From contig OX597825.1 of the NCBI GenBank assembly GCA_951406725.2, positions 69,378,001-69,442,000 of the forward strand: 64,000 nucleotides of DNA. Direction: 5' to 3'. The notes beneath the pieces were generated by a model. That model was not told the origin of the DNA, ran no database searches, and worked only from the letters and a program-made list of their open reading frames with translations. Shown piece by piece: positions 21,695-53,253 of this stretch; position 1 is the first letter of the stretch; every line of letters starts with the position of its first letter. The translations under genes were made by a program, and so were the position numbers. This DNA comes from Octopus vulgaris. Lineage: Eukaryota.

Positions 21695-22231
21695 AAGAAA
21701 TATTGAGTTTCTAAATCTCTCGTAGAGAGGTGTACGGTGGTGGAGCGATATAATGGTTGTATACTGTCAATCTAACAAGAACGTGACAGTAGGGGTACAC
21801 CACCGTTATATAGCCCTAGAAGGCATCGAACGCCTCCTGACAGCTTCGACACATTTTATCCTGTATCCTTATATACACATACGAAGGGGAGACAAACACC
21901 CCCAACCGCCGGAACTGCATCTAGGGACACCGTGTTTCAGGATCATTGTCCTTCATCGGCCTAGAGTAGCAGACACCGGTCCAGATATCGCCAGCTGACC
22001 GGTGTCTGCTACTCTAGGCCGATGAAGGACAATGATCCTGAAACACGGTGTCCCTAGATGCAGTTCCGGCGGTTGGGGGTGTTTGTCTCCCCTTCGTATG
22101 TGTATATAAGGACACAGGATAAAATGTATCGAAGCTGTCAGGAGGCGTTCGATGCCTCCTAGGGCTATATAACGGTGGTGTACCCCCTACTGTCACGTTC
22201 TTGTTAGATTGACAGTATACAACCATTATAT
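21695..22231. mobile_element. Head-to-head inverted pair of a hammerhead-bearing Penelope-like/retrozyme-like element within (TA)n
   Basis: Arms 21748-21981 and 21997-22231 are near-identical reverse complements with a 15-bp spacer; hammerhead at 22014-22057 (+) and 21921-21964 (-). Confidence 0.85.
22014..22057 (+). ncRNA. Type I hammerhead motif, CCGAUGA core variant
   Basis: ctagg-CCGATGA-aggacaatgatcct-GAAAC-acggt-GTC-cctag; stems I and II perfect. Confidence 0.75.
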
Positions 22232-23353
22232 ATATATGTAGCTCGTCCTGTATTTGTTTTTCGTTTTCTTGTTCTTCGTTTTCCGTTTTCTTGTTTTTTG
22301 TTTTTTGGCTTTTTCCGTTTCTACGTCTTATTGTGTTGTCCTGTACTCCCGTATAATTATTTATATATGCATCTATATATACATGTAGATGTAGGTACGT
22401 ACATATATGTTTGTATGTATGCATATATTTTTATTTATCTCCTATATATATATATATATATATATATATAGACACATATAGCTTTGCGTTTTTGCTTTCC
22501 CCCACAGCTTGGCAACCGGTGCTGATATGTTTACGGGTATTTAACATAGTGAGTTGTCAAAAGGTACGGATAGAACATAGCAAACGTAAAACTTTACTAC
22601 TGGGATCGAATATCGAAGAATACGATAACCACAAAGTATACCTTTGTCTATAGACTGTTTGTGACAAATACTAATCCGATTTTGAAAGCCTAAGCCGTTT
22701 CCAGCTTAAAAAATGTTTACCGACGTAAATTCTGTTAAAACGAAAGCTAATTCTGGCGAAATATAAATACGAAACTAAATGCTGGAAGGCATGCATTTTG
22801 ATGATTGCCATCCAAGTTAATTAGTTTTCAGAAATTTCCATGATAAATGAAATAGTAACAAAATCAGAAAGGTACGGTTCTTGACCATTAAGTAGACATT
22901 TGCTGTGCTGAAACTAAAATTCGGATTCTTATCGTTTATAAATCCGATCCATTAATATGCCTTACTCGATTACATTTAAACGCATCAGAACAACGCGACA
23001 AAAGTTACCATCACTAATTATTATATGGGCTTTTAACTGTACAAATGAGCAACACACACACACACACACACATATATTCTCACATATATAGAAGCATACA
23101 TACATATGCATATATATACGTATATATATATCTATATATATCTATATACATATGTATATATATACATATGTATATATATATATATATTTATATATATATA
23201 TATATATATACATACAGATATACATAAATATATATATACATACATATATATATACATATACATACATACACATATATATATATACACGCATATATATACA
23301 TATATATATATATATTTATATACACGCATATATATATATACATATATATATAT

Positions 23354-23870
23354 ACAGTGCGCGTAAGGTATTTGAGAACATATATTTTTGGGGTCATTGC
23401 TGCAGTTTTTGCTAAGTCTGTATAATCTTCGTTTAAGAATGGCTTACTCAAGAAATAAAGAGGCATGCAGCTATTTTGGTTATAAAGGCCGAGCATAGCG
23501 ATTTAAAAATACCTTGAATTTAAAAAGTTGCCAGATCTTCCGTCTACAAAGTTTGTAAGGAGCTAGAGAGTGAAGATGGAAGCGTATCACAAGTATCAAA
23601 GCATAAAAGCCATTCTAAACACTCTGAAATTATCAGCACAGCTGAATTTATCCAGCAAGTTCAATAGACTATTGATTACAATCCCAGAAATTCCATTAAG
23701 TCAATTGCAAAAATCTCTATGTATCAGAAAGAACAGTCAGAAATGTTGTCCACGAAGACATGAGATGTAAATCTCATGTGATGAAGAAAGGTTTGTTTGT
23801 TAGAAAAAGCAAAAGAAGATCACTCTATCGGATCTAAAAGGATCTTAAACAAACTGAGAAATCCAACAAA
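23354..23870 (+). mobile_element. Tc1/mariner (maT-like) transposon 5' remnant
   Basis: TA+CAGTG start; decayed translation [10 protein letters not shown]...KVARSSVYKVCKEL...NPRNSIKSIAK...ERTVRNVVHED..KSHVMKKG...KRILNKL (HTH region). Confidence 0.65.
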
Positions 23871-24324
23871 TCACGAATGTGATACAAGAAAACCTAACTA
23901 CATAACAATGATAAGTCTCACCTCGATACATAATGTTATATTACACACAAATATATAAGAAGGATGTAGCACATACAGGCACCGTTTGCAAGTGTGTAAG
24001 GCACCTTAATTTAGGCAATAATAAAAGTTGAAAATAAATGGAATTAAAACTAATTTCTCATTAGTTCAGTTTTCAAAAGCTCTCATGTTTTTCGAACAAA
24101 TTTCATATGATGAATGTAATTTTTGGATGTCTTCTCTAAATACATGACTAGATAGTTTAGCCATTGAAACATTGAAACAGGTATCATATGTTGATAAATG
24201 TGTAAGCATTTATTTATTACCAGGTTCTCAGAACATTTTCTCCTCTGTTTTAAGACACACACACACACACACATACAAACACAGCTGACACCGAAGTACA
24301 TCTCCAGCGTTAGAAGCTGTGCAA

Positions 24325-24880
24325 AGACAGACAATGATTTTCAGACGGGTCGTGTAATCGAACACCGTCTGCCGAATATTGTGATATTGAATAAGAGAGA
24401 CAAATACAGCCAGATCATTATGTAGCCATAGCAAATGACATGAATGTTGTGAGTAAAGAGGTTGAAAAAATCACCAAGTACTCAGAATTGAAAGTGGAAA
24501 TGGCAATACTGAATGGAATGCGAGAGAGTAATGTAAAAGTGATACCAGTGGTGATCAGAGGGTTGGGCTCAGTCTCACTGAAACTTCAAAACTTCTTAAG
24601 GCAACTGGAAATCGCGTGCAAGATTGGTGTCTTGCAAAAAGCAGCCTTATTGGGTAGAGTGCACATCTTAAGGAAAGTATTATCTGTCTGAGGTCCTTGT
24701 TATGTCTTGACGGAAGACTAAAGTCTCCGGTGCATTTTTACCTACTCTGTGTTACGAAGGAATGATAATAATAATAATAATAATAATAATAATAATAATA
24801 ATAATAATAATAATAATAATAATAATATTAATAATAATAATAATAATAATAATAATAATAATAATAATAATAATAATAAT
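24325..24880 (+). mobile_element. R4/Dong-type LINE 3' fragment with (TAA)n tail
   Basis: DFQTGRVIEHRLPNIVI...KEVEKITKYSELKVE...VIPVVIRGLG...LQKAALLG..HILRKVL; (TAA)n 24764-24880. Confidence 0.85.
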
Positions 24881-25811
24881 AAAAAGAAGAATATGTGAAT
24901 CTAAGATTGTATAGGTAATACCGTTACCTCGTTTGGTTCCATTAATCCATCCAGTCATCTCCCTCTCTCTATGTATGTATGTATGTATGTATGTATGTAT
25001 GTATGTATGTATGTATGTATGTATGTATGTATGTATGTATGTATCTATCTATCTATCTATCTATCTATAGTGAAAATTAGTTAGATATAGATAAAGAATT
25101 CAATATGTGCAGCGCTTTCATATTCACACAATTATAACTGTTATGTACATAAGTATGTATGGCAATGTATAAGTGAGAGAAAGACAGAAAGAGTGAAAGC
25201 GAGATGGAGAGGGAAAACAAGTTCTGTGTGTGTATATGTGTGTGTGTATGTGTATGCGTGCATGTGAGTATATTTGTAATTTTGTGCGACAAAGAGTCGT
25301 TTATATCTACGTTTATAAATTACCATTGGTGATGCCAAACTGACAGTCGCCAACTGATACATTGTTACTGAAATAAACAGGAATGCATTAGAATAGATTA
25401 GAATATATCTTCGAATAAGTTCGAAGTTCTAAATCTCTAAAGTATTGGGATTATGTCGGAAGAATACATAAATTAAGAAAGGAAGATGCAGATCTCTTGG
25501 CGTCATCTCCATATATTCAACAATGTGTTTTGCACAGTTAAATATGTATAATATAGTCACTACTGAATATTGAATTCCAACTATCGGGAACGATTTATTA
25601 TGAAGTAATAATGATATATATCTCACCCAGATACATAAGAATGCTGTGTCGCCCCTATATACATAATAAATAAATATCTCACATTATATGTAACAATAGA
25701 ATATCTTCTCAATCTACATGACAATTATATATATCGGAAATGACCAGAGATGAATAGTAAGGATATATATATGTGGATGCCTGTGTGTGTATGTCTATAC
25801 GTATAGAAATA

Positions 25812-51759: not shown

Positions 51760-51849
51760 ATATATATATATATATATATATGTGTGTGTGTGTGTGTGAG
51801 TATGTATATATATACATATATGTACATACTTCCATATATATATATATAT

Positions 51850-52270
51850 AAAGTTAATCCAAACAAGAAAGCACAAAAAAACACAACAACGCGAGGACGT
51901 GGAACAAATAGAGCATTATTGGACGCTCAGGAAAGAAGGATGTATGCATATATGGTTACAGGACATCTTAAAACGTAAACAACATGAAATAGGATGTCGA
52001 ACAATATTTTTCGAACAACGAGAGAAACAAATGGAAAACAATACAAGTAACATAAAAAACGACCCTTCATCAGTTGTCGGCTGTTTATATATTTCAAATT
52101 TTGAGCAATTCACGACAATATGTGTCTTCGATAAAACAGTTTCTCCCGCAGCCAAAATATAATTTGGGATTTTCAGAGGGTGAAAACAGGACAGTGAAAA
52201 CAAATAGTGAGGGCCGGTAGGCCATAATACGAAGTAAGGTGGTGAACGCTTGAGGGACAATGTTTGGCAG
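51850..52270 (-). mobile_element. Two abutting Penelope-like 3' fragments between TA tracts
   Basis: 51850-51940 matches the tail of 27325-27518; 51945-52270 ends like 22238-22380 (gtcctgta...tatatgcat) and contains CTGATGA at 52067-52073. Confidence 0.55.
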
Positions 52271-52369
52271 GAGAAAAGATAGGAGAAGATGTGTGTATAT
52301 ATATATATATATATATATATATATATATATATATATATATATATATACACATACATGCATACATATACA

Positions 52370-52515
52370 TACGACGGGATTTCACTTTGTGTCTACTAAA
52401 TCCATTCACAAGGCTATAGTGAGAGACAATTGCCCAATGGTCCAGGCAGTGGGACTGAACCTGGATCAATGTGGTTGGGAAGCAAGGTTATTACCATTCA
52501 CCCACGTCCGCGCCT
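52370..52515 (-). mobile_element. SINE family B head half
   Basis: tacgacggg...aaatccattcacaaggc...cagtgggactgaacc. Confidence 0.75.
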
Positions 52516-52809
52516 ATATATATACATATATATATCTATCTATCTATACACACACACACACACACACACACACATATATATATATATATATATATATATA
52601 TATATACACACACATATATATATACACACATATATATATACACACATATATATATATACATACATATATACATATATATATATATACACACATATATATA
52701 TACCCAGATATATATATATATATACATACATACATATATATATATATATATATATATATATATATATATATATATATATATATACATATATATATATACA
52801 CATATATAT

Positions 52810-53253
52810 ATAAAAAAGAAGTTTGAAAACGCGACTATATAAGATAAATTTTAATTTTATTTGAAATTTTACATGTTTCGGTTCTTCTTGAAAAAACGAA
52901 TCTTATCAAAATTATTTTAAAACGTGAAGTGTAATAAAAAAGTTCATAGTTGTTTCTTACTGGTCTCAACAGAATCGTCCTATGTGTTCGAATACAACTA
53001 AAGAAAAATCTTTACTTTTTCTTTAGTTTTATTCGAACACATAAGACAGCTGTTATACTTACTCCCCACAAAATAAAAACAACGTGGATTCTGTTGAGAC
53101 CAGTAAGAAATAATTATGAACTTTTTTATTACACTTGACGTTTTAAAATATTTTTGATAAGGTTCGTTTTTTCAAGAAGAACCGAAACATGTAAAATTTC
53201 TAAGAAAATTAAAATTTATCATATTTAGTGGTGTTTTCAAACTTCTTTTTTAT
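52810..53253. mobile_element. Head-to-head inverted pair of an AT-rich hammerhead-bearing element within (TA)n, with a nested inner palindrome
   Basis: Arms 52810-52976 / 53087-53253; inner arms 52977-53011 / 53017-53048; attt-TTGATAA-ggttc...gaacc-GAAAC-at-GTA-aaat at 53150-53197. Confidence 0.8.

Follow-up and report, generated by a model that had tools for sequence, protein, structure and literature searches.

Insertions of Penelope-like elements (PLEs) have been described as being completed by an inverted pseudo-long terminal repeat (pLTR), with a tail on one inverted pLTR and in AT-rich targets; the head-to-head arrangement is the one most often observed and was ascribed to an antisense template that primes itself (Arkhipova et al. 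2013, PMC3846280). The same layout was reported by Craig et al. (2021, PMC8557442), who ascribed the tail to endonuclease resolution and described a (TA)n bias in Naiad and Hydra elements and a microsatellite bias in Neptune elements, with (TA)n-inserting Naiad and Hydra families present in Octopus. In Octopus vulgaris, 31 recently active Penelope-like families have been listed (PMC13282606). The PLE protein of the anole Poseidon element (PAc, Poseidon of Anolis carolinensis) introduces nicks into both strands and extends them, works with uncut RNA, and has two neighbouring start points of reverse transcription inside the RNA, between which the tail lies (Frangieh et al. 2024, PMC11167929). 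For PLE hammerhead ribozymes, U3-A8 cores and an occurrence on opposite strands 100–700 bp apart have been reported, and circular RNA was proposed as the template of copies longer than one unit (Cervera & de la Pena 2014, PMC4209133). On the origin of the inversions, these sources offer self-priming (PMC3846280) or give the later steps as unvalidated (PMC11167929, PMC8557442). Here we analysed 64 kb of O. vulgaris contig OX597825.1 (the window), in which a first-pass annotation had noted three hammerhead-bearing inverted pairs and had proposed that both ends of a break in a TA tract prime cDNA synthesis, by twin priming or break repair. All three head-to-head pairs were found to be real and in the places where that annotation had put them. 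Very probably they are non-coding insertions, truncated at the 5' end, that stem from the hammerhead-bearing terminal regions of PLEs or from retrozyme-like derivatives and were mobilised in trans by a PLE protein with a preference for TA. The families probably are uncurated, non-autonomous and of a known kind.

The window is AT-rich eukaryotic DNA, dense in microsatellites and short repeats, and contains 110 TA tracts of at least five units that occupy 4% of its length. Its short interspersed elements (SINEs) may resemble those of Octopus. Each of the three pairs consists of a copy joined at its 5' end to an inverted 5'-truncated copy (Table 1). The arms of pair 1 are 98.3% identical across 235 columns, those of pair 2 differ at 8 of 314 positions (97.5% identity, 50988–51301 versus 51389–51702, with 87 nt separating these segments), and those of pair 3 match at 93.1% over 52802–52976 versus 53087–53261 and again over 52977–53008 versus 53016–53047, the two blocks being set apart by a 39-nt indel, sequence that the right arm has and the left arm has not. 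Substitutions between arms are mostly transitions (3/3 in pair 1, 6/8 in pair 2). In every pair one arm outruns the other: the left by 52 nt in pair 1, the right by about 57 nt in pair 2 and, with its presumed tail included, by 35 nt in pair 3. The eight arm differences of pair 2 fall into two clusters of four, with 159 nt round the hammerhead identical (51061–51219 and 51471–51629), which may reflect gene conversion or chance. No element-derived open reading frame (ORF) of at least 120 aa was present in the arms according to the ORF list, only low-complexity frames crossing them, and three-frame translation of one reading per pair gave short open stretches only. The pairs thus have no ORF of their own for a PLE reverse transcriptase with a GIY-YIG endonuclease and are non-autonomous or truncated.

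Table 1. Arms, tails, centres, hammerhead-like motifs and flanking TA tracts of the three inverted pairs, in window coordinates.
Feature	Position	Strand	Basis or remark
(TA)18 tract, 3' end of pair 1 left arm	21660–21695	.	TA-run count
Pair 1 one-sided tail, about 52 nt, ends at T	21696–21747	-	homologous to pair 2 tail
Pair 1 left arm	21748–21981	-	repeat comparison
Pair 1 left hammerhead-like motif, type I, U4C core	21920–21965	-	pattern scan
Pair 1 centre, 15-nt spacer, no TA tract	21982–21996	.	repeat comparison
Pair 1 right arm, ends at tail-less site S	21997–22231	+	repeat comparison; followed by 6 nt of alternating TA
Pair 1 right hammerhead-like motif, type I, U4C core	22013–22058	+	pattern scan, fold
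TA run of 10 nt, 3' end of pair 2 left arm	50978–50987	.	TA-run count
Pair 2 left arm, 391 nt (364-nt unit + 27 nt)	50988–51378	-	ends at S; 5' part 51296–51378 is the tail region of an upstream unit (partial tandem)
Pair 2 left hammerhead-like motif, type I, U3-A8 core, palindromic stem III	51160–51201	-	pattern scan
Pair 2 junction, element sequence duplicated in tandem over 14 nt, 2–5 nt microhomology, no TA tract	51362–51390	.	sequence comparison
Pair 2 right arm, 370 nt (unit + 6 nt)	51389–51758	+	tail 51703–51758; ends at T
Pair 2 right hammerhead-like motif, type I, U3-A8 core	51489–51530	+	scan, fold; predicted cut after 51524
TA run of 22 nt, 3' end of pair 2 right arm	51760–51781	.	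TA-run count
TA run of 11 nt at pair 3 left arm 3' end, last part of a 240-nt AT array	52802–52812	.	TA-run count
Pair 3 left arm	52813–53008	-	repeat comparison
Pair 3 left hammerhead core to GAAA	52876–52909	-	relaxed scan
Pair 3 centre, 7 nt of spacer that look like adjoining element sequence copied with slippage	53009–53015	.	sequence comparison
Pair 3 right arm	53016–53253	+	repeat comparison
Pair 3 right hammerhead-like motif, U3-A8 core	53150–53197	+	pattern scan
Pair 3 presumed tail, 35 nt	53254–53288	+	no similarity to pair 1 and pair 2 tails
TA run of 31 nt, beyond pair 3 presumed tail	53289–53319	.	TA-run count

A type I hammerhead-like motif reading outwards was found in all six arms, the left motif on the minus and the right motif on the plus strand of every pair. 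A strict type I scan of both strands of the entire window gave five hits, all inside pair arms, compared to 0–1 hits in each of 20 block shuffles (4 in total). The remaining arm motif (pair 3, left) came from a relaxed scan with 17 hits, most of the others probably being due to chance. All predicted cores are variants, U3-A8 in pairs 2 and 3 and U4C in pair 1, the latter not being mentioned in the accessible text of PMC4209133. With the PLE hammerheads of that study they share the type I topology, the tiny palindromic stem III, the U3-A8 core swap and the pairing of motifs on opposite strands 100–700 bp apart. Stems I and II are present in the predicted folds for pairs 1 and 2, and stem II only in pair 3. 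The best 150 of 195 Rfam matches (E ≤ 1) were all microRNA or small RNA look-alikes of repeats and hairpins, the hammerhead family being absent among them. All arms run through the predicted cut site, indicating that the template was not a ribozyme-cut linear monomer.

The outer ends of the pairs (6/6) meet alternating TA within 0–1 nt, with runs of 36, 6, 10, 22, 11 and 31 nt, compared to a background of 0.018 per end (the probability that (TA)3 begins within the 3 nt that follow a random non-TA position). Two of these anchors are short (6 nt at 22232 and 10 nt at 50987), and at the right end of pair 3 TA is met only when the presumed tail is counted as part of the element. The first-pass picture of outward-reading hammerhead strands that end in TA on both sides, with one longer arm per pair, was borne out for all six motifs and, with the presumed tail of pair 3 included, for all six ends. 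Four further insertions of hammerhead families were examined in the window: three solo copies (12206–12343 and 27360–27518 on the plus strand, 51853–51940 on the minus strand) and one tandem (32793–33606, minus strand). All four likewise have their 3' end at TA (runs of 77, 45, 17 and 42 nt, respectively), indicating that TA anchoring is a property of ordinary single-ended insertion here and no discriminator for double priming. One tail-to-tail neighbourhood was seen, in which 51758 faces 51853 across 94 nt of TA/TG; it involves two different families and is as expected from independent insertions. The flanks of pair 2 hold a possible 11-nt duplication (50977–50987 and 51759–51769), which TA repeats could yield trivially.

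Pairs 1 and 2 belong to related families that can be aligned from the hammerhead to the end (tails z = 6.1, with 0/1000 shuffles as good; bodies z = 4.6, 0/500). In both, the short ends (S) and the long ends (T) lie at matching positions, T being 52–58 nt downstream of S, which indicates that S and T are fixed element sites. The tail between them is present on one end only in either pair, the two tails being homologous to each other, and pair 2 carries a second, internal tail copy. No similarity was found between the presumed tail of pair 3 and the tails of pairs 1 and 2, and hairpins predicted in the tails folded no better than shuffled sequence. Pair 2 is more complex than a palindrome of two arms, since a partial tandem, absent from pairs 1 and 3, makes up the left arm. 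Each arm is one contiguous run on a template with a period of 364 nt (1.07 units ending at S and 1.02 units ending at T). The arms are not nested: the tail-less arm extends 84 nt further in the 5' direction, and the other arm has the tail. Both exceed one unit by less than 30 nt (post hoc chance about 0.007, single locus), which would suggest a circular template. Just downstream of T, pair 2 keeps a highly conserved stretch.

The pair 2 family was also followed in outside DNA-type contigs from four runs with four organism labels, for which summed contig depth does not equal copy number. It is abundant under all four labels. In run X2 the summed depth was 2.6 × 10^4 to 1.1 × 10^5 on most of the left arm, compared to 10.6 for a contig exactly matching a nearby stretch, and peaked at 3.7 × 10^5 across T and about 30 bases downstream. 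Pair 2 thus represents a non-coding unit of 364 nt (a length known from pair 2 only, within the 150–400 nt expected of such units) with a type I hammerhead, dispersed and in high copy. Among nine listed left-arm sites that vary in the family, the two arms of pair 2 share the allele at eight, suggesting that pair 2 results from one event and one source. Fifteen of 66 contig joints were shown, seven of them in the pair 2 region, all from run X4 and with one contig each; rows without a stated kind are excluded from the tally, and flanking TA zones were skipped in the comparison. Six of the seven are head-to-head and one is same-sense; none is tail-to-tail, a count that is biased, as true 3'-end joints would fall in the skipped zones. 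The head-to-head joints, which come from another organism, have clearly asymmetric truncation points on the arms in 5/6 cases, with microhomology of 0–6 nt. Three joints that appeared to end exactly at T were set aside, their side lengths of 20–26 nt being typical of all joints. In metagenome contigs, neither of two pattern scans gave a match, and nine loci from a scan of viral contigs were dismissed as chance (match length only 18–21 nt). The accessible supplement of PMC8557442, in which line breaks and cut runs can hide matches, contained no match to any of seven short DNA motifs or either of two peptide motifs. The frame across T (51254–51370, minus strand) is a short protein-like stretch with three stop codons, one of which is missing from most family copies: at position 51322, about 97% of the X2 depth has a base that removes it. 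This frame may be a relic of the start of a PLE ORF.

The hammerhead, the head-to-head join, the one-sided tail, the partial tandem and the TA target together uphold the earlier assignment to PLE-type insertions. Compared to endonuclease-bearing PLE insertions with inverted pLTRs (PMC3846280, PMC8557442), the pairs show the same head-to-head 5'-truncated copy, partial tandem, one-sided tail, terminal hammerhead and (TA)n that hides a target site duplication (TSD), but they lack a reverse transcriptase or endonuclease ORF, and the tails of pairs 1 and 2 measure 52–58 nt versus 30–40 nt there. With PAc (PMC11167929) they have in common two fixed 3' ends bounding a tail, an AT-rich target and a template uncut by the hammerhead. 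PAc needs RNA downstream of its start sites, and the stretch downstream of T retained in pair 2 is comparable in position. However, PAc is autonomous and was studied in vitro, whereas the pairs are inferred from genomic copies, and the accessible PAc account does not address inverted insertions. Animal non-LTR (non-long terminal repeat) retrozymes (Cervera & de la Pena 2020, PMC7229834; Li et al. 2026, preprint 10.64898/2026.07.22.740005) are similar to pair 2 in that a non-coding unit with a type I hammerhead forms a high-copy family, and 364 nt falls within the 350–390 bp range of mussel repeats. Unlike retrozymes, which consist of at least two tandem units each with a complete hammerhead and of which self-cleavage and circular RNA in vivo are further hallmarks, the pairs have about 1.0–1.1 units per arm, inverted, with one hammerhead per arm; two such motifs, with a variant core, occur in the tandem 32793–33606.

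On balance we lean towards formation of the pairs by dual priming within the known PLE layout, and not by a new mode of integration. The PLE endonuclease would nick both strands of a TA tract, and each target 3' end would prime reverse transcription on an element RNA, one at the distal site T to give the tailed arm and one at the proximal site S to give the tail-less arm, by analogy with the anole PLE in vitro. The two cDNAs would then extend towards each other, halt early and become linked by their 5' ends, with short microhomology or slipped filler at the join, features that are seen at the junctions. For pair 2, the template would have been a tandem or circular RNA with the 364-nt period observed. 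Priming from both target ends, as put forward by the first-pass annotation, is thus plausible, given that the anole protein nicks and extends both strands and that pair 2 is most simply explained in this way, but the geometry and TA anchoring cited for it do not discriminate. Its wording in terms of twin priming fits less well. In the terms of Meyer et al. (2010, PMC2837659), who define twin priming and a hypothetical dual priming on two RNAs, L1 events share with the pairs the priming by both target ends, the outward 3' ends and the short junction microhomology, but the fragments produced by twin priming are inverted, do not overlap and derive from one RNA that has lost an internal part, whereas the arms of pairs 1 and 3 duplicate each other; poly(A) is lacking here and the enzyme class is different. 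Duplicated arms fit dual priming on two templates better. For pair 2, a reading as twin priming would require a tandem template and would leave a gap of 53 nt. Dual priming expects each outer end to be a normal priming site of its own RNA. The ends lie at two sites conserved between pairs 1 and 2, but three copies are too few to show separate templates. A two-primer model for PLE inversions was stated in no paper found by literature searches, whose coverage did not extend to subscription papers such as early Penelope reviews.

The principal competitor, which we judge possible though less probable, is single priming followed by fold-back. Here priming at T would come from one target end, and the mirror arm would be copied after the 3' end of the cDNA has turned back on itself (or by self-priming of an antisense template); cutting or annealing of the mirror arm at the TA-like site S would then allow it to be joined to the other target end. 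This is the published reading of head-to-head pLTRs (PMC3846280), and it accounts for the same family alleles on both arms, for the short palindromic sequences in the middle of pairs 1 and 2, for the near-symmetric centres and short-arm nesting of pairs 1 and 3 and for S ends that resemble TA over 1–9 nt. Since both dual priming and fold-back predict head-to-head pairs with TA outside, a count of head-to-head versus tail-to-tail pairs cannot separate them. What distinguishes them here is pair 2, whose non-nested arms, each one run ending at S or T, favour dual priming: no template jump is needed under dual priming and at least one under fold-back, which would require one or two extra jumps and yet an exact stop at T. 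Moreover, most contig joints are asymmetric, although fold-back permits loops of any size, and the tail has since been linked in vitro to two reverse transcription start sites (PMC11167929). Several points count against dual priming. Only pair 2 is informative. The arms of pairs 1 and 3 stop at almost the same coordinate (spacers of 15 and 7 nt), as does 1/6 contig joints; such near-symmetric centres favour fold-back, as dual priming would need a shared stop such as the RNA 5' end, and under independent truncation they have P ~ 0.04 for 2/3 pairs and P ~ 0.08 for 3/9 cases (assumed match probability 0.12). The S sites are themselves AT-rich, their ends being TA-like over 1–9 nt, and may be sites of endonuclease or microhomology resolution, as proposed for the tail in PMC8557442. 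The shared alleles are equally compatible with fold-back, a TSD is illegible inside the TA runs that flank the pairs, and an empty allele was not seen in the contig comparison, which skipped the flanking TA zones and had no piece running across the stretch. A weak protein search with a 42-residue reading of the pair 2 tail region returned one candidate and no hit at E ≤ 10, so that the mobilising protein was not found in it. Dual priming and fold-back may both operate.

The other explanations fare considerably worse. Repair of a spontaneous break at a TA cruciform without endonuclease, patched by PLE cDNA, is very improbable. Long TA tracts are break-prone and the same geometry would be expected, but solo and tandem copies also end in TA at fixed element sites, a flanking deletion could not be shown, and the (TA)n preference tracks particular endonuclease-bearing PLE clades (PMC8557442); nothing found here supports the break-repair mode suggested earlier. 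We give marginally less credence still to two independent, opposite insertions into the same TA tract. Pile-up in TA tracts does occur here, as shown by the other family that ends at 51853, tail-to-tail with pair 2; against this, each pair consists of one family although the window has several, TA remains at no centre (0/3 pairs, longest alternating run 2–4 nt), a tail (presumed in pair 3) is present on a single arm per pair, and 8/9 family-variable alleles are common to the arms. Least credible is an assembly fold-back artefact, or MITE-type (miniature inverted-repeat transposable element) DNA transposons with TA target sites. Fold-back chimeric reads can produce palindromes, and no outside contig runs across the window's own junction; however, the arms differ by substitutions, mostly transitions, similar joints occur in short-read contigs, and the unequal ends at sites conserved between families, the hammerhead motifs and the partial tandem speak against both artefact and MITEs.

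Returning to dual priming, a more specific version for pair 2 appears rather unlikely to us: two reverse transcriptases, primed at S and T from one TA cut, would each have made one lap of a 364-nt circular retrozyme RNA and stalled just past the start of their own cDNA (lap + 27 and lap + 6 nt). If this were true, pair 2 would be a genomic footprint both of dual priming and of the use of a circular template when a PLE drives retrotransposition, and arm lengths in the pair 2 family would be predicted to peak slightly above one unit. The head-to-head, TA-anchored layout adds nothing to the debate on PLE inversions, being known and predicted by both models, whereas nested versus non-nested arms and arm lengths, as suggested by pair 2, could move it.

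Several further features were seen in the window. Among the control insertions, 12206–12343 is a solo 138-nt insert with a long TA tract on either side; at 12214 it carries the first half of a hammerhead core, in canonical form, and its stem I is weak. The copies 27360–27518 and 51853–51940 are 5'-truncated members of one other hammerhead-bearing family, both ending at TA, with summed depth of up to 1.4 × 10^6 in run X2 and loose ends behind 51940 that run on into a hammerhead core. The head-to-tail tandem 32793–33606 has a period of 481 nt and an overlap identical at 333/333 positions. Both units contain a hammerhead-like motif whose core is A6U, TA lies at the two outer ends, and a short TA-like stretch separates the units; the tandem may be a very young retrozyme-like dimer or an assembly duplication. 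A further high-depth repeat at 51950–52260 (peak of 3.2 × 10^5 in X2 at 52032–52079), with a hammerhead-like first half-core on the minus strand, is probably a further PLE-type stub that adjoins the 51853 copy on its 5' side. Short T-rich stretches at 22238–22370 and 62515–62589 end at TA-like sequence and may be 3' tips of other TA-targeting elements; a hammerhead was not found in them. Two of four other ORFs matched Pfam domains, none within the pairs: a 479-aa open frame at 34726–36165 (minus strand; RVT_1, E = 1e-26) and a zf-RVT fragment at 48398–49785 with a 265-nt direct repeat nearby, both being long interspersed nuclear element (LINE)-type remains unrelated to the pairs. A 133-nt inverted repeat (15363–15493 and 16741–16873, 77% identity) surrounds about 1.2 kb of decayed sequence that, by eye, may resemble a DNA transposon. 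Local direct duplications of 90–390 nt with 87–100% identity were present at 23880–24253 and 26910–27295, 36872–37067 and 39706–39902, 16880–16972 and 17156–17248, and within 28535–29252.

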